A DNA stretch of 64,000 bases from Trypanosoma brucei. Lineage: Eukaryota. Every line of letters starts with the position of its first letter. Position 1 is the first letter of the stretch. This document shows, piece by piece, positions 1 to 61,817 of this stretch. The stretch covers positions 2,752,001-2,816,000 of the forward strand of contig CM000207.1 of assembly GCA_000002445.1 (NCBI GenBank). The letters are read 5' to 3'. Under the pieces are notes generated by a model. That model saw only the letters and a list, made by a program, of their open reading frames with translations. It was not told where the DNA came from and did no database searches. The position numbers and the translations under genes are program-made.

Positions 1-1618
1 GCACTGGCACGCTTTCGGGTTGGGTCTTCAAGACACTATGGATGGATGTTGCGAAAGATCAACCCGAGTGTGCCTCCACAGTGCCGATGGTGCAACCCAC
101 AACATGCAGCGATAGGACCAACAATACAAACAGCCCCACTTGTTGCGACACGCACTCTTCAGAGAACCTCCGAACCGATCAAATGTACGGAATGTGATGC
201 CACATACCAATGCCGCTCGAGTACTGTAACGCACATGGTAAACAAACATGGCTTTGTGCGAGCTGATGCCCTCCGGAGGATCAAATACGGCGATGCAACA
301 CCCGCAGTGGATATCCCCCCGGAGCCCCCTCCAGTGGTGGCGATCGTTCCTCTACCATCGAGCACACGAGTCCCGATGAGACCGCAGGTGCTTCATTGTA
401 CCATCTGTGCCTCCAAATTCGCAGTACCAGGCAGACTATTACACCACCTTAGAACAATACATGGCATAGGCAGCGGTAGTTGCCGCGTGAAAAGGGGGCG
501 AGAGAACGAGGACTCATTGCAAGGAGATGGTAGAGCCCCAGCAGCGCCAGCCTCTCAGGATACACGGAAGCTGTAGTTTCAATGTGACCTGTGTGAGGCG
601 AGCTTCGGTACACGCTCTTCCCGGTCACTACACAAGAAATTCAAACATAAGAGCATAGTGACGGAGGACGGTACCGTGGTGGTGGTGCAATTCCCTCGTA
701 AGCGTGCCCGTGAAGGAAACGTTGACGTCCCGGGGAAAGGCGAGGAGCAGTGTGGTGTGCGCCAGAAAGTGCTCAGTTGCAGGGACTCTCTCATCCGACA
801 CTGTAAGGCTTTCCACTAATGTGAGGAAGTCGAGGTTAAATGCAGCAAAAGCACAAAATTATGTGCCACTGATTCCCCGCATACAAATGCATCCATGTTG
901 GGTGTGACCGACATGCGGAAGGCAGTGTGCTAGCAAAACTGGCCTCACCCTACATCAAAAGAAGATGCACGGTATGAAGATAGAGCGCGCTGTTACCAGC
1001 CAACGCGGCGACTGCGAAGAAACGGCGCTGCACCTGATGAACTGTCCCGATTTGAAGGAGTTACGTGTTAGGTTTGCGGTGGAAGGTGTGTGTGTGTGTG
1101 CAGGATGTATTATTCTCCAAAAGACTGGCGCAGTTTCTCATTGCGGTTGAACGAAGCCGGCCGCATGTGAAGTCCTCCCCTAATGTAACAGTTATACAAC
1201 CCACTTTCCTTTCTGCAACTTTCCCCCTTATTGCCGAGTGTGGAGCTAGCAGGAAAAGCACCGGACGCAGGAATAGTCCAGACACCCTCAGAGACAGAGG
1301 GGGTATGCAATCAACAAGCAACAGAAACAGAAAAAGGGGAAGAGAATAATAAACGAATAACAAAAATCAAAACAAAAGGATTGCTAATTGACATCTTTTG
1401 GAGAGTCTGGGGTGGGAGGTTTCTCGCCCCATCTGCTGTATTCCGTTCAACTGCGGAGCTACAACAAAAGTTATAGAAAGTGTATTAGGCTGAATAAAAA
1501 AGGGAGACTCTGCCACAGTCGCCAGACCGATAGCATCTCAGGGCTCTACGGTGATGGCTGATGGCCGCGCCAGTGGGGGGAAACTCCCACGAAGGCACGA
1601 AGAAAATTCCAAAAAATA
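1..1618 (+). mobile_element. ingi non-LTR retrotransposon, 3' ~1.6 kb (5' part lies outside the window)
   Basis: 1-1618 is colinear and near-identical by eye with 54063-55677, the 3' end of the full ingi in this window. It ends in an A-rich tail at ~1600-1640 and carries the C2H2 zinc-finger ORF. Confidence 0.85.
46..816 (+). pseudogene. ingi ORF C-terminal C2H2 zinc-finger domain, disrupted
   Basis: ORF 46-576 has the motifs CTECDATYQCRSSTVTHMVNKHGF and HCTICASKFAVPGRLLHHLRTIHG. The paralogue 54109-54882 reads through to KAFH, but here a TAG at 575-577 interrupts and the remainder continues in other frames. Confidence 0.8.
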
Positions 1619-10800: not shown

Positions 10801-10989
10801 TAGGAAAACAAACCAAGTAAAAACAGCTTTTTTCAAATACACTATCACTCTACCACTTGCCACACACATGTCACTATCATACAAATTTTCAAAAAATTTA
10901 ACAATCTAAAACGTTTTGACAAAAAGTGTTAAAATATATTAAACTCTCTTACAATAAAAAAATATCATATAATAAAAAACATTCCTCAA

Positions 10990-13834: not shown

Positions 13835-13975
13835 TAATATAATATTCGTATATACACACTCACTACACTCTCCTATTATTATTATTATTACTGCTCTTAT
13901 TATAATATTAGTACAAACACGTTCACAACTGCCTCCTATTATTATAATCTTTATTATCATAACTCTAAGCCTAGC
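13835..13975. repeat. 70-bp repeats, about 2 units
   Basis: aatattcgtatatacacactcactacactctcctattattattattattactg... is followed by ...acaaacacgttcacaactgcctcctattattataatc. Confidence 0.8.
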
Positions 13976-14201
13976 CACTATCCGTAAATAGGTCAAAATA
14001 ACAAAATTAAAATGTTACTCACTTTGTTACACCTTATCACCATAATAAGCGGCATACACAGGACACAGTAATATACATTTTACTAAAATTTCATATTTTA
14101 AAAAATTTCACTAATTTTCACACTTTTATTAAAGGTGTTAAATATATCAAATTTAGAAAACTTCATTAATTTCATAAAGTCGAGGGGAAATCTTAAAAGT
14201 T

Positions 14202-15707
14202 TTATAGAATCAAAAATGCTAGCAAAAGAGGAGCTTTATTGATAACAAAAGAATTACTTACTGTGGTGTTTGTAGCTTTTCCATCTGTCCCTGTTGCTGC
14301 TGTGGTCGCTTTAACTTTGCACTCCCCATCTTTGTATTCACACCCATCCTTGTTGTTGCATTTAGTTTCGTCTTTTTCTCCCTTGCACTCTTCTGATTTT
14401 TTGTTATACACTGTTTCTGATATGTTCTTCATTTTCTCTGCCGTTTACAGTTTCCGCTTGATTCTTATTCCTTCCATTTGGCTGAGAGCTAAGTTTGCTG
14501 CTTGTGCTGTTGTCATGCTTGTAATCTTCTTTTTTTCCTGCTTGACTCTGTCTCTTGTCGGTGTTGTGTCTGCAGCAAAATCTTCTTCAAAACTCGCTTT
14601 AAATGCGTTGGCGTCGTGCCCGAATTTGCTCGAAATCCACTCTGATATTTTTTGACCCTCCGCTCCGCTTTGTGGGTCATCTGCGCTGTCGAATTTGGGG
14701 AGACAGTTGCGTATCGTGCGGCGCACTATTGGGTTATCCTTTAGAGCTGGGCCACTTAGGGTGGGCATCGTTTCTGGCGCAACGTCGGCCTTTAGTGCTT
14801 CGCAGAGTTTCTGGGCGAGTGTTTTGGGGTGATTGGCTGCGTCCTGTGGAGATGCGGCGTCATTGGCACACGCTCCACGCTTCTCGTTCGATGCGAAGAA
14901 TTGAATTTGAGTCTGAGCCGGTTTTCCGACCCAGTTTCCGTGCGTGAACGCGACTTTGCCGTCGCTGGCATGCCATGTGCAGGCGTTAAGCACTGTGCCT
15001 TGGCTACCGCTGCTACCGCCGCTGAAGCCTGAACCGTGGGCTGGGACCAACTTTTTGGTTGGGACGTATTCGTGGAGTTTTGCTGCGTCCGTTACTTTCA
15101 GCTTGTACAGTTTCGTTGCATCTGGGTTTCTGCCTTTACATTCTGGTGTTGCCTCTGGTGCTGTTGGCTTGCAAATCTGTTTACCGGCCGCTTTCGTTTC
15201 AAGGTTTATAGTAACTGTGTGGCTTGCTTTAGTGTGACTGGCGTCCGTTTTCGCCCCTACTACTGTTGTCGCCACCGCTATTGCCGCTTGGGCTATACCG
15301 ATCTGAATATCTATCCTTTGCTGCGCTGCCCGCATAGCGGTCGTTGCTACCGCGAGCTTACCTTCGTTTCTCTCGAGGCTGTTCCCTGCGAGAGCCACCA
15401 GCGCCAGGATGCTGCAGATGTATTCGGCCACCATAGCTTTCGCTGCTGCCAGCCTGTATTTGCGCGCCAAAGTTTTTGAGTCAGCGACTGCTGGGCTCAG
15501 CGACCCGAGTCGGCCTTCAAGCTGTTTCCTAAGTTCTTTTAGGTAGTCGACCTCAGTGCAGGGGTCCGTTATCCCTTTTTCCGCGGCGGGGTCGTTTGTT
15601 TCAGCCGCCGACGTAGCCGTATATTTAGATAAAAGAAGCGCTATGGTTAGTGTCATTGCTTTTTTCAATATCGTGTGGCAGCAGCTTGGTTTACGGTCAA
15701 GAATCAT
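14202..15707 (-). pseudogene. VSG with one frameshift between the N-domain ORF (420 aa) and the C-domain
   Basis: ORF 14445-15707(-) ends ...MEGIRIKRKL. The C-domain ORF 14202-14432(-), CKGEKDETKCNNKDGCEYKDGECK...SNSFVINKAPLLLAFLIL, is in another frame. The same C-domain is in frame in the paralogue at 31014-32546. Confidence 0.85.
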
Positions 15708-20490: not shown

Positions 20491-20739
20491 TCAAAAAAAC
20501 AATAAACGAAGTTAGCCAAATTAAGGTGGCACTTACTTTTTCCTCCCTATTACTACTTTACAACCATAGGTCACTTTCATAGAATAATTATATATTTTTA
20601 AAAATTTCACTAATTTGTGTATTTTGCAAAAGCTCTACAACAGCGTTATAAATTATCGAGTTATCTCAAAATAGCAATTTTTATAATTTTTTATAAATTT
20701 TCATAAATTTCACACTTTTGATCATATGTTCTTAAAATT

Positions 20740-24480: not shown

Positions 24481-24734
24481 ATAACCCTACCTATTATTTT
24501 AAAAAATAAACTAAACTAAATTAGAATAACACACATTTTTTACACACTATTATCCTACTACTTTGCACCCATATGCCACGTTCAAACACATGTTACTAAA
24601 AGTCGCACATATCAATCATAAAGTTTTGAAATACATCAACGTTTAGAAAATATTAGCAAACTATTACAAAAGTAATTTTCTTAGAAAACAACATATTTAT
24701 AAATAAAAATACCTAAAATTTTACAAATCCACAA

Positions 24735-25480: not shown

Positions 25481-25674
25481 TTCCACAAAAAAAACGGGAA
25501 AGAAGGAAAAAAAAATTTTTAAGTTTCCAGAAAAAATTTCTAGACAATCAGACAGTCAACTTACAAAACACAGAACAAAGAAATCTCGGCTGGTTTTAGG
25601 TGTTAAAATATATCAGAAAGTTTTCAAGTAGCAAAAAATTTTAGCAAAAATTTTTTAAAAAAGAGGGGTAAAAA

Positions 25675-27655: not shown

Positions 27656-27805
27656 TAACAAATGTCTGCAAAACAAAAAATGGACCAAATTAGAGCAACA
27701 CTAATTTTTCATACCATATCACCCGCTCACCTTACTATAATGCACCCATAGGACACTCACATACAAATGTTTCAAATTCTCAAAATCTGCACATTTTCAT
27801 AATTT

Positions 27806-29417: not shown

Positions 29418-30699
29418 AGAGGGTGTGTTTTGTTACGTCATGCTGATGCTTAGTTATTCTTAAAGCTAACGAAGGCAAAACCGTTGATTCTCGTGATTGT
29501 TTGTGAAGAACCGCAGTTTTGTATAGGAACCACGATTTTTGTCTACCGCTTTCGTGTGGCTCCGCCATTTGAATACCTACACGCCTGATAAACAACTGAA
29601 GTCATAGAAGTTTATGACAACTTTTAGTTTTGCGTGACGCTACACAGGTTGCGATTTTCTATAGACTGAAATAAAGGTCGATTCATATTTACGCCTTATC
29701 TAAAAAATCACCCAGTCTTCTTTCGGATATGCCGATTCTGAAGTAAAGAGACCTATGCAGAATCTATGAAAAGCTGTTCCAGAGCTTGCTGTTTCGCATC
29801 AGAATTCACCATCTATTAAAAAATACATCCACAACAAGTTTTAGAAGCTTAGAATAACATTTAGACACAGCGTCTCATCTTTTTAATATGCTGAGTAACA
29901 CTTATATAAATTAAAAAATGAAAAAACTGTATAATTTCAATAATAATTGATTAGTATCTTTTGAAGCTGGATTTCACTACAGTTTGTTGGAACTATTTAT
30001 TGTATTTTTCGGCTTCTAAAGATGCCTATCACGGGTAGTTCTGGATTTTTGTGATGTCATAAACGAATATCTTGCCTATTATATGGCAAATATCTTCATG
30101 CTATTCCGTGACCACTAGTGACTAGATTTTCTTACTGTTATTTTTGAATTTGGTTGTAGTAGAGCGCTATTATCAAGCATTTTCCTTTTCGTCTATTTCC
30201 GTTGTTTTCTCTTGTTTGATTTGTGGCTCGTTATTGTCAACAACTGGACATTGGTGCTCCTCCATCATATTTAAATCCAAGATCATCATCATCTATAACG
30301 TAGAATATATACATTTGTGAGTGAAATATAGAGGTCAATATCCTACTATATCTTTTTTCCCGCTGATTTGTGGTGTCAGATCGTATTCTGTCATTTCATT
30401 ATGCATTTATGGTTCTCTACTTGCTTTTTTGTCTCGAGTTTTTATGGATCACGTGTAAATTGTATTTTATCATACATAGATTCTGTTTTACACCATTTTC
30501 CTTTCTATCATCTTAATGAATGTAATGATACTCATCGTTATATCGGTGTTTGAAACCACAATATTCTGTTTGCCTCTCTCTTTATGTTTAAAGACATTTC
30601 TCGTGCTCTTCCTCACTCCTTTTCACACACTTACACCAACTGCACCGTGCCATCATTTCATTGCTTCATTTTTTCTTGTCAATTTGATGTCCATTACTT

Positions 30700-30780
30700 C
30701 TCTCATTATAATATTAGTATATACACACTCACAACACTCTCTTATTATTATAATCTTTATTATAATATTACTTCTCTTAT
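30700..30780. repeat. 70-bp repeat
   Basis: attataatattagtatatacacactcacaacactctcttattattataatc. Confidence 0.8.
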
Positions 30781-31013
30781 AAATTTATCTAATATCCTCA
30801 AACAAAATAAGCCAATATAATAAATTTTTAATAATGACGCTAATTTTTCATTCACTATCACCATACTGCTTTACACCCATAGGATACTTTTATACTAACA
30901 CTTCATATTTTAAAAAATTTCACTAATTTTCACACTTTTATTAAAGGTGTTAAATATATCAAATTTAGAAAACTTCATTAATTTCATAAAGTCGAGGGGA
31001 AATCTTAAAAGTT

Positions 31014-32546
31014 TTATAGAATCAAAAATGCTAGCAAAAGAGGAGCTTTATTGATAACAAAAGAATTACTTACTGTGGTGTTTGTAGCTTTTCCATCTGT
31101 CCCTGTTGCTGCTGTGGTCGCTTTAACTTTGCACTCCCCATCTTTGTATTCACACCCATCCTTGTTGTTGCATTTAGTTTCGTCTTTTTCTCCCTTGCAC
31201 TCTTCTGGTTTTTTGGTGTCAATTGCTTTGGGTATGTTTTTCTTCTCTGCTTCAAGTTCCCTCTTGATTCTTATTCCTTCCATTAAGCTCACAGCTTGAT
31301 TGGTTTTCTCTGTAGAACTGGTTAGTTCGGTGATCTTTTTGCTTTCTACCTCTCCCTTGTCTCGTATGGGTGTGCTTTCACCCTCAAGTAGGGACTTGAA
31401 TTTGTCGTTGAAATTGTCTGCTGTTTCTCCGTAGCCTTTTTCTATCCATTTTATCAATTCTTTTGCCTTGCTGTTATCCGTTGGGTCGTCTATGTTGTGA
31501 AACGCAGGCCAGCAGTTGCGCACATAGGTTCGGATCGCATGAGACCCGCTGAGGCTTTTGCCGCTATATTCAGATATTTTTGTTGTGTTTGGTGTTAGCT
31601 TCACGCCCTCGCATATCGCCTTGGCTCGTCTTTTCAGTGGCTCATTTGCTGCATCTGCTGCTGTGATGTCTGAGTGGCAGGCTGTCTTGTCTTCGTTGCT
31701 CTTGAAAAAGTGGGTTGCTGTCCTGTAGGCTGATGCTGGCGGTTTGGCTTTTGTTATTTCGACAGCACCTGAGGCGCCGCTGAACGAACATGCGTTTAGT
31801 GCACCCGTAGCGCTTTGGCTGTTTTGCGTTGTGCAGCCGCCTTCGGCTGTAATTTTGATACCGTCCAGTTGATTGGCTTTGTTAACTTTTGATTTATCTG
31901 TGAGGTCCAGTTTAAAAAGGTCTTGCGGTTCCGGTGTTTCCCCTCCGAACGTTTCTTTTGCTTCGTCAGTTTCTAATTTGCACAGGTCTTCGCTTTTCGC
32001 CTTTACTAATTTTAGTGTGGCTGTATAGGGGCTGCCGCCTCCTGTGCTGCTGTGGACGGAACCTGAGTTCATCTTTGCGTGCACTGCCGAAACAGCTAAT
32101 GCTGCTGCTATGACACCTTGTTGCTGCTTGATTGCTGTGGTTGCAGAATTGACTGTTTTTCGGACTCTCTCCAGCTCAAGCTCGTTGGCCTCGAGCGCAT
32201 CGCTTATCGTTAGTTCCAGTGCCGTGAGCAAACACTTTTGTCCCTGTTCCTGCGCTTTGGCTGCTGCCATCCGCCACTTTCTAGCTTCCGTTTTCTGCAG
32301 CCTAATTGTGGCTTTAATGTCGTTTAATTTCCCTTGTATATGCTGGCTGAGCCTCGTTAAATAGGCATGCTCTTTGCACACATCTGTTGCCGCTTCTGCC
32401 GCTGGGTCATTGGCCTTGTTGGCGGTGCAGGTTGTCGCGGCGTTGAAAATGAGTAACAACGTCGGTATTGTTGAGTATGGCATCGGCAGAGTTTTGGTAA
32501 TTAACGTTTCTCTTAATGGACTATGCTCTCCCTGTCGGTTTTTCAT
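31014..32546 (-). CDS. VSG: Variant surface glycoprotein, apparently intact (510-aa ORF; the likely true start is the internal Met before PYSTIPTLLLIF)
   Basis: A continuous ORF runs through the signal peptide MPYSTIPTLLLIFNAATTCTA and the N-domain to the C-domain ...CKGEKDETKCNNKDGCEYKDGECKVKATTAATGTDGKATNTTVSNSFVINKAPLLLAFLIL. The 3' UTR has TGATATATTTAACAC. 70-bp repeats lie ~0.9 kb upstream. Confidence 0.85.
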   Translation of the reverse strand: MKNRQGEHSPLRETLITKTLPMPYSTIPTLLLIFNAATTCTANKANDPAAEAATDVCKEHAYLTRLSQHIQGKLNDIKATIRLQKTEARKWRMAAAKAQEQGQKCLLTALELTISDALEANELELERVRKTVNSATTAIKQQQGVIAAALAVSAVHAKMNSGSVHSSTGGGSPYTATLKLVKAKSEDLCKLETDEAKETFGGETPEPQDLFKLDLTDKSKVNKANQLDGIKITAEGGCTTQNSQSATGALNACSFSGASGAVEITKAKPPASAYRTATHFFKSNEDKTACHSDITAADAANEPLKRRAKAICEGVKLTPNTTKISEYSGKSLSGSHAIRTYVRNCWPAFHNIDDPTDNSKAKELIKWIEKGYGETADNFNDKFKSLLEGESTPIRDKGEVESKKITELTSSTEKTNQAVSLMEGIRIKRELEAEKKNIPKAIDTKKPEECKGEKDETKCNNKDGCEYKDGECKVKATTAATGTDGKATNTTVSNSFVINKAPLLLAFLIL

Positions 32547-33525: not shown

Positions 33526-33724
33526 TAGTGATATTTATAAAATATACCAAATTGTAAGATCATTAATTTTTCATATATTGACACACTAGCAATTCACACT
33601 CATAAGCCACTATCAAACACATTTTACTACTTTTTATTTTTTATTTTTTCATAATTTTAAATTTTTATTAAAAGGTGTTAAAATATGTTAAAATATTAAA
33701 AGTTCTTGTAAATTCTTAAAATCA

Positions 33725-36870: not shown

Positions 36871-37115
36871 AAATAAACATGAAATAAGTGATGACTATAT
36901 TAGAATAGCATATACATTTTTATATACTATTGCTATACTACTTTACACCCATGATCCACTTTCATACCAAATTTTTCATATTATTTCATTATTCACTAAT
37001 TTTCGGCAGTTTGTATACTTTCGTCAAACAATGTTAAAATATATTAAATTCTCTCAAAATAGCAAATTTAATAAATATCATAAATTTAAGCAAAAATACT
37101 TGAAAAACTAAAACT

Positions 37116-49790: not shown

Positions 49791-49899
49791 TGATTGAGGT
49801 GTCTGCAGAGTAATTCACAATGAAAAAATGTTAAAATATATTAAAATATCTCCAAAGAACAAATTTAATAAGTTCAATAAAACTTCTTTTAAAAATTAA

Positions 49900-60290: not shown

Positions 60291-61817
60291 CCGAATACGG
60301 CAGCTCACCTACTAGGCATACTGCTTTCATTCGTGTTGGCGCCGAAGCAAGCATCAGCGGATGCTCCAAGCATAAAGCTGTCAACGTGGCAGCCAGTGTG
60401 CCACCTAGAAAAGGACACAAGACGTGTACCAGCCAGAGGATACAAGGCAATAACGGCTGCAATAGCCGAAGAACAAGCGATACGCTCGGCGGCCCTAAAG
60501 GTCCTAATATTTGCGGCCGCACACACCAGCGGAGAAGAGCGGGCTCGAACGGAAGCGCTAGGTTTAGACACCATGCAAGCAGCAGAAGCCAAACGACGAG
60601 AACTCGAAACCACGGTAGAGATGGCCCTCAACAGTGCATCCACAAGCCTCGAACTAACAGGCCGAATAGAAGCAACAATGGAAGTCCTAAAAGCCACGCA
60701 CGACAACAACAACAACGGTTGCCTTTCTGACGACGACAGGGACGCCGTGACTAACGGAAACACAAAAAAGCACGGCTGTGAAGGAACAGTTACGGACGTA
60801 GCCAACGACGAAGACACTATAGACGACAGCAACATAGGGCCAACAGGCTACGAAAAGCTAACGGCAGTCCCTGGCAACTCTGGAGTAAGCGGCGACTCGT
60901 CGAAATGCGGCTTTCTAAACAGAGGTGTGGCGGGAACAGCAACGATTATCAGCACCGAGGCGCCCACTTTGCTATCAGGAGTCTTCAAAATAAGCGGTAC
61001 CGACCAATTCCAGAGAATGGCGCAGGTAAACCAAGGAACAGCTGGCGCCCGCCAAAAGACAAACATCCTGAAACAAGCCTACCACGATGCAAGGAAAATA
61101 CAGACCGTAACAAAGCTCGCAGCGACAACTGACGAGGTAACACTGCTTAAAGCAGCGATCACGAGCGGCTACGTCAAGCAACAACTAGCGGCGCAGCTTA
61201 GCCAGCAGCAAGAGAACCCGAACAGCCAACAAAACGACCAGGCGGTTACGGAGATCATCAACAGCAAATTCAAAACAACTGACGACACCATAAAGGACCT
61301 TTGGGCGAAAATAAAAGTAGCAGAAGTCACAGATGTCAAAGGCAAACTGGGATATAAGAAACAACTACAAAACATAGGCGAAGAAACAACATTACAAGCG
61401 ACCTTGATTTACTACGGAAACCAAAATACGCTTAGGATAGCAGCACTGGAAGCTGAAGTCAGGAAATCACAAGAGAATTCAGCTAAAAAGAACCAACAAG
61501 CGCTAGAAGAAGTTTGTAATGCAATAGGCGACAAAAATGAAACTACTTGTAAGAACACGTCAGGGTGTCGTTTTGTTTCTACAAATCCCAAGGGCACAAA
61601 GTGTACCTTAAACCCAGAAGCAGCAAAAGAAGCAGAAAGAGCAGAAGCAAGTCAAGAAAAGAAAACCGACCCCAAGTGCTCCAAACATACCAAAAAGGAT
61701 GACTGTAAATCTCCTGATTGTAAATGGGAAGGAACAGAGTGCGAAGATTCTAGTTTTCTCGTAAATAAACAATTGGCTCTGAGTATGGCTACTTTTTTGT
61801 GTGTTTTCTTTTTTTAA
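60291..61817 (+). pseudogene. VSG: VSG on the plus strand with a continuous ~508-codon frame but no ATG start (ACG at 60297-60299 where ATG is expected)
   Basis: The frame opens after TAA at 60288-60290: PNTAAHLLGILLSFVLAPKQASADA... is a signal-peptide-like stretch with no Met. The tabulated ORF start at 60333 is GTG. The C-terminus is CKSPDCKWEGTECEDSSFLVNKQLALSMATFLCVFFF*. Confidence 0.7.

Follow-up and report, generated by a model that had tools for sequence, protein, structure and literature searches.

How did two silent genes for the variant surface glycoprotein (VSG), with clearly diverged N-domains, come to share one C-terminal domain (CTD) and 3' untranslated region (3'UTR)? The question is raised by a 64,000-nucleotide stretch of the Trypanosoma brucei brucei TREU927 genome (assembly GCA_000002445.1, contig CM000207.1, positions 2,752,001 to 2,816,000; hereafter the window), a silent, subtelomeric VSG array in which two genes with a common tail lie 16.8 kb apart, in the same orientation and within one array. 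We refer to them as A, a VSG pseudogene (14202-15656, minus strand), and B, an intact VSG gene (31014-32483, minus strand). Segmental conversion, CTD exchange and the repair of pseudogenes by recombination are established parts of antigenic variation in T. brucei. The VSG pseudogenes of the TREU927 archive were reportedly described by Berriman in 2005, and gene conversion among silent archive VSGs is said to have been treated by Marcello and Barry in 2007.

Array context and identity of the two genes

The window has open reading frames (ORFs) that Pfam clearly identifies as VSGs (Trypan_glycop, VSG_B and Trypan_glycop_C); these recur every 3-4 kb, are separated by 70-bp-repeat units and lie nearly all on the minus strand. 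Both A and B are found inside this tandem array, with other VSG cassettes on both sides, and not in a telomeric expression site. One intact-looking A-type VSG is encoded on the plus strand (60333-61817, with a 70-bp-repeat core at 59100-59113; region 59100-61817), all other VSG cassettes being on the minus strand, and this strand switch coincides with a retroelement region. The latter contains an ORF of 852 amino acids with reverse-transcriptase and RNase H domains (51488-54046, plus strand), probably belonging to an ingi-type retroelement, and the 1.6 kb immediately after this ORF (54064-55673) are repeated at the start of the window (1-1616) with 95.5% identity.

The start codons of both genes were placed by comparison with database VSGs. 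The sequence-only reading had started them at the ATGs at 15707 and 32546, whereas the likely start of A is Met18 (15656), which matches the start of Lister 427 VSG-1755 and leaves an in-frame ATG upstream at 15707, and the likely start of B is Met22 (32483), which matches the start of Lister 427 VSG-546. The annotated product of B, 510 amino acids from the upstream ATG at 32546, is exactly EAN77425.1/XP_827755.1 ('VSG, putative', T. b. brucei TREU927), so that the proposed pairing of one pseudogene with one intact copy holds, B being annotated as a VSG in TREU927.

Neither A nor B matched any Pfam family even at E <= 10 (Trypan_glycop PF00913, VSG_B PF13206 and Trypan_glycop_C PF10659 were tested); neighbouring ORFs of the window do match those VSG models. 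Our reading of this result is one of limited model sensitivity for a VSGsur-like subfamily, and not one that speaks against VSG identity. B aligned over its full length to VSGsur (PDB 6z79/6z7c, E = 7e-23), and the family profile matched the CTD of MITat1.2 (PDB 7p56, E = 2.5e-5), the likeness of the A/B subfamily to VSGsur and MITat1.2 being one of sequence alone; the N-domain of A by itself gave no PDB match at E <= 0.01. Screens for VSGs that are based on Pfam would miss this subfamily, despite the full-length match of B to VSGsur. The CTD cysteines of A and B are arranged as C-x9-C-x5-C-x6-C and are followed by ...TNTTVS/NSFVINKAPLLLAFLIL, a hydrophobic GPI signal. This arrangement and the profile match fit a single four-cysteine subdomain, as in the single-domain four-cysteine CTD types 2/4/5 defined in VSGdb (PMC1868767).

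A perfect identity tract at the 3' ends

In an ungapped comparison at an offset of 16,812, all 306 positions of 14090-14395 in A (minus strand) matched 30902-31207 in B (minus strand), and a direct-repeat search of the window independently recovered the same pair (repeat family D2, spacing 16,812). The sequence-only reading had described a near-identical C-domain and 3'UTR of about 350 bp; the identity is real, without the substantial CTD or UTR divergence that would have refuted it, and its extent is 306 bp. Besides the four-cysteine CTD with its GPI signal, the tract takes in the stop codon and a further 112 nt on the 3' side, including a 16-mer-like 3'UTR motif. In A, translation places the 63 codons of the CTD and GPI signal at 14205-14393 and the TAA stop codon at 14202-14204, with the 112 nt flank at 14090-14201 (all on the minus strand) and 14394-14395 contributing two bases of the codon that precedes the first CTD cysteine region. 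The peptide encoded by the 63 codons, directly followed by the stop codon, is EECKGEKDETKCNNKDGCEYKDGECKVKATTAATGTDGKATNTTVSNSFVINKAPLLLAFLIL.

Within the tract no A/B difference was seen at synonymous sites or in the 112 nt of non-coding flank. A run of 306 matches would be expected by chance with p <= 2e-30 at flank-level identity (a background of 80% or less), and runner-up CTD/3'UTR pairs in the window reach 72-85% identity over about 95-190 bp, no other pair in the window exceeding 85% identity at the 3' ends (about 95-240 bp compared). With the 89-amino-acid C-terminus as query, an exhaustive HMMER search through 1.84 billion representative proteins returned 120 relatives. Against database CTDs the tract peptide matched B itself at 63/63 and Lister 427 VSG-546 at 60/63 residues, and the best other CTD among about 118 related ones at only 50/63 (<=79%), in libraries that hold neither pseudogenes nor most of the TREU927 archive. 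Because the identity is perfect at every synonymous and non-coding site of two genes that are both silent, one of them a pseudogene, it points to recent copying, and purifying selection cannot account for it.

Boundaries of the tract

The 5' boundary of the tract lies between 14395 and 14396, in the hinge/CTD region. Directly upstream (14396-14430) only 24/35 positions are identical (69%), and indels follow farther upstream, so that the 350 bp formerly claimed overshoot at this end. Still farther into the hinge (14434-14490), 47/54 positions are identical with a net 6 nt of gaps. By codon alignment, nucleotide identity between A and B is 45% in the N-domain (over 391 codons), 76% in the hinge and 100% in the tract. 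The N-domains are indeed related but diverged, as had been claimed, with 32% amino acid identity over 391 codons (E = 6e-57). The hinge of A (14396-14490, minus strand; MEGIRIKRKL, a stop, then TAEKMKNISETVYNKKS) is homologous to 31208-31296 of B and diverged from it, and the hinge motif MEGIRIKRELEAEKKN is present in 11/120 related database proteins.

On the 3' side, similarity between A and B falls to 67/120 (56%) with 22 gap columns, compared with 63-65% when either is set against other cassettes, e.g. the 24-kb cassette, in an alignment of seven cassette 3' flanks. Beyond the tract, A and B are thus no closer to each other than to unrelated array cassettes, which bears out the 3' boundary and shows no polarity of the exchange. 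The cassette borders are marked by 70-bp-repeat units (13887-13961, minus strand, repeat family D1, in the next cassette downstream of A; 30693-30767 downstream of B, 85% identical to the former unit), and A and B are only 56% identical between the tract and these units. Several VSG cassettes also have a conserved element, with a consensus of about CCTATGGGTGTAAAGTAGTA, that follows the stop codon at ~130-170 nt and lies after the 16-mer but ahead of the next 70-bp repeat (repeat family D5; about 14040-14075, 30865-30900, 20550-20590, 24555-24595 and 27735-27775). The tract is therefore an island of identity with much lower similarity on both sides and homologous surroundings, as is typical of a gene-conversion patch.

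A single nonsense codon in A

A had been described as frameshifted, with the lesion exactly at the junction of N- and C-domain and a junction indel as its cause; none of this was borne out. The 502 codons of 14202-15707 (minus strand) form one reading frame with exactly one stop, a TAA at 14445-14447 (minus strand) that is the sole lesion and is aligned to GAA (Glu) of B, and in BLASTP both sides of this stop align to B in the same frame. The translation around it reads ...MEGIRIKRKL, stop, TAEKMKNISETVYNKKSEECKG... and the stop column is Glu in 6/6 other members of a seven-sequence family alignment (RELE/KELE). The TAA lies within the hinge, 50 nt upstream of the tract boundary. The hinge of A is longer than that of B by a net 6 nt (two in-frame codons), and the reading frame is therefore kept. 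By comparison with its homologues, A is a gene independently inactivated by what was probably a single G-to-T change, which turned a conserved hinge Glu codon into TAA, and nothing links the origin of this stop codon to the recombination junction. With the description of the lesion so corrected, a single nucleotide separates A from an intact ORF. Its N-domain would be expressible only via recombination whose 3' crossover falls in the hinge or the N-domain, upstream of 14447, and such a rescue would be of the mosaic or 3'-donation type.

The closest database relatives of the N-domain of A are Lister 427 VSG-1755, to which A is 88% identical, and EATRO1125 VSG-1125.1518, both of which end before the CTD. 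These proteins are only 287 and 304 amino acids in length, respectively, and diverge from A after '...QIQFFASN', ending shortly afterwards (14448-15656 compared), which makes the TREU927 copy the most complete version of its N-domain among the sequences compared. All three proteins are without the cysteine found within '..GGC/SGC..' in B and five further relatives (GSGF in A), and have an extra cysteine ~40 residues earlier (PECKG). This change, at about 15020-15140 (A residues about 175-215), is a lineage-specific shift in the N-domain cysteine pattern.

The 16-mer in the shared 3'UTR

VSG mRNAs carry a 16-mer in their 3'UTR, canonically TGATATATTTTAACAC (PMC9044945), for which 100% conservation across these mRNAs and an essential role in their stability have been described (PMC13515020). 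Both copies of the tract hold the same variant, TGATATATTTAACAC, one T short of canonical (14135-14149, minus strand, in A; 30947-30961 in B), in an array-cassette context in which 70-bp-repeat units flank both cassettes. Imperfect versions were the rule in the window: of eight recognisable VSG 3' ends, seven were imperfect and only one had the canonical TGATATATTTTAACAC (25600-25615), other 16-mers showing one or two substitutions each (2910-2925, 10926-10941, 33675-33690, 37031-37046 and 49828-49843). This suggests that B, and other array genes like it, may depend on the 3' end of the expression site when activated. If TGATATATTTAACAC is non-functional, B would not be expressible with its own 3' end and 3' donation at the expression site would be obligatory. 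One might go further and regard the copied module as carrying a crippled 16-mer, with conversion inside the archive spreading expression-incompetent 3' ends, an idea that we put forward with considerable doubt; if true, ORF-based counts would overestimate the directly usable VSG repertoire. 'Intact' calls that are based on ORFs ignore the competence of the 3'UTR, and here the 16-mer is imperfect.

Gene B and its Lister 427 orthologue

B is 99% identical to Lister 427 VSG-546, protein AGH61104.1, and the few differences between the two are unevenly placed, with none in the first 391 residues and seven in the last 98 (Fisher p = 1.1e-5). They are E392A, L400A, G403A, P426S, N439S, N440S and N478H, and they start at residue 392 (numbered from Met22), upstream of the A/B tract. 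The pattern may be taken as a second, independent sign of 3'-end replacement, here between strains, and agrees with the finding that cross-strain VSG identity typically stops in the CTD (PMC1934917). Since the differences begin upstream of the tract, a single A/B event would be insufficient to explain them; no fewer than two events would be needed, or else a third donor.

Origin of the shared 3' end

Our preferred explanation, which we consider probable, is that a short, non-reciprocal gene-conversion patch homogenised the 3' ends of two diverged silent VSGs, A and B. The patch would extend over 306 bp: beginning at the first cysteine region of the CTD, it would take in the GPI signal and the stop codon and reach 112 nt into the 3' flank, and it could have arisen by homologous recombination using the general CTD and 3'-flank homology common to VSG cassettes. 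Its direction may have been from A to B or from B to A, or both copies may have been written from a third donor. A conversion patch is favoured over a crossover because identity is bounded on both sides; a crossover is disfavoured since it would leave one-sided identity and a rearrangement. A patch is also the simplest account, given that the island is bounded on two sides within generically homologous sequence (the MEGIRIKRELEAEKKN hinge and the CCTATGGGTGTAAAGTAGTA flank). Among silent archive VSGs, ectopic gene conversion is known to drive evolution alongside duplication and point mutation (PMC3472502), and the boundaries of VSG conversions commonly cluster in the CTD (PMC3708902; PMC13233330). 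The length of 306 bp speaks against a simple patch when set beside the archive N-domain conversion tracts, whose mean is ~14-25 nt in a study that did not cover CTDs (PMC3472502).

A different history, in which a third donor VSG (for example a copy at a telomere or expression site, or an array gene outside the window) supplied the cassette to A and to B in separate events, without direct exchange between the two, is unlikely in our view, although it draws some strength from the Lister 427 comparison. All seven B/VSG-546 differences fall in the last 98 residues and three of them lie upstream of the A/B tract (as does, at its boundary, the P/S change), so that the segment replaced in the lineage of B is longer than the tract, and successive 3' donations are known to yield composite 3' ends (Hall et al., PMC3708902). 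Two independent events that share both boundaries would, however, be a coincidence, and no third sequence with the CTD of the tract was found, the best besides B and VSG-546 matching at 50/63, an argument that is weak in libraries without pseudogenes and most of the TREU927 archive. Rather improbable, too, is a duplication of the whole cassette (70-bp repeat through 3'UTR) within the array, followed by a conversion that replaced the N-domain and hinge in one of the copies with those of a diverged relative. Such a course would give the same end state as a patch, and the 5' boundary in the hinge/CTD region is where N-domain replacements usually end, yet two events would be needed where one patch conversion suffices, and upstream of the genes no residual A/B similarity was seen except for generic 70-bp repeats.

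Readings that do without any recombination fare worse. An assembly or consensus artefact that homogenised two similar repeats is conceivable for any repeat in a subtelomeric assembly and has no specific support here; we hold it to be very improbable, since each copy of the tract sits between unique, well-differentiated flanks, B encodes a protein equal to the deposited reference annotation, and only A has the TAA and the in-frame hinge indels. Common descent, with the CTD and 3'UTR under strong purifying selection, can appeal to the generally higher conservation of CTDs than of N-domains (about 40% versus about 20% identity; PMC1868767), but it has next to no probability left and is already effectively refuted by the identity profile. 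The total lack of synonymous differences, and of non-coding ones over 112 nt of flank, goes together with N-domains at 45% nucleotide identity; identity breaks off abruptly at either end; no related CTD elsewhere is more than 79% identical; and one gene is a pseudogene and both are silent.

If A and B do owe their common tail to a gene-conversion patch, the exchange would be neutral for antigenic variation, because the CTD is buried in the coat and is not antigenically relevant (PMC3708902, PMC1868767). The case is an ordinary and tidy example of segmental conversion in the reference genome, since VSG 3'-end exchange and archive conversion are well documented. Its practical value is small and it raises no new question; it illustrates that the N-domains and 3' ends of VSGs have separate histories and that silent archive copies exchange segments.

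Comparison with known systems

3' donation in the sense of Hall et al. (2013) takes place at the active expression site, where the CTD of the previously expressed VSG is retained during switching (PMC3708902). As strict 3' donation the A/B pair is ruled out, both partners being silent array copies, and only the general mechanism, segmental gene conversion, applies. Of the earlier suggestion of 3'-end donation or conversion between archive VSGs, conversion thus stands, being in keeping with a module bounded on two sides, and strict 3' donation does not. The likeness to 3' donation and segmental conversion (Hall, Wang and Barry, 2013, PMC3708902; Smith et al., 2026, PMC13233330) is nevertheless close in that a chimeric VSG results, with its CTD and 3'UTR from another source than its N-domain, in that the crossover lies in the hinge/CTD region, and in that the partners are of low identity (down to 33% at the nucleotide level in the study of Hall et al., against 45% between the N-domains of A and B). 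Unlike in 3' donation, the A/B tract stops at a defined point in the 3' flank as well, and the homology of A and B right at the 5' boundary (24/35) is lower than the >85% of identified 3' donors (PMC3708902). 3' donation is also the route by which VSGs with damaged 3' regions stay usable, and a duplication followed by overwriting of the N-domain, with the resident 3' end kept, would be its analogue in the archive.

The pair resembles the archive conversions of Gjini et al. (2012) in being ectopic, non-reciprocal and between subtelomeric array copies, and in having a patch whose similarity is sharply unlike the rest of the alignment (PMC3472502). Those authors dealt with N-domains in high-identity pairs, in which imported tracts appear as clusters of mismatches averaging ~14-25 nt, whereas A and B are a low-identity pair in which 306 bp of CTD and 3'UTR stand out by their perfect identity. 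By the archive classes of VSGdb (PMC1868767), B fits 'intact' and A fits 'pseudogene (frameshifts and/or stop codons)', a class within which the damage to A is minimal, amounting to one nonsense codon and no frameshift.
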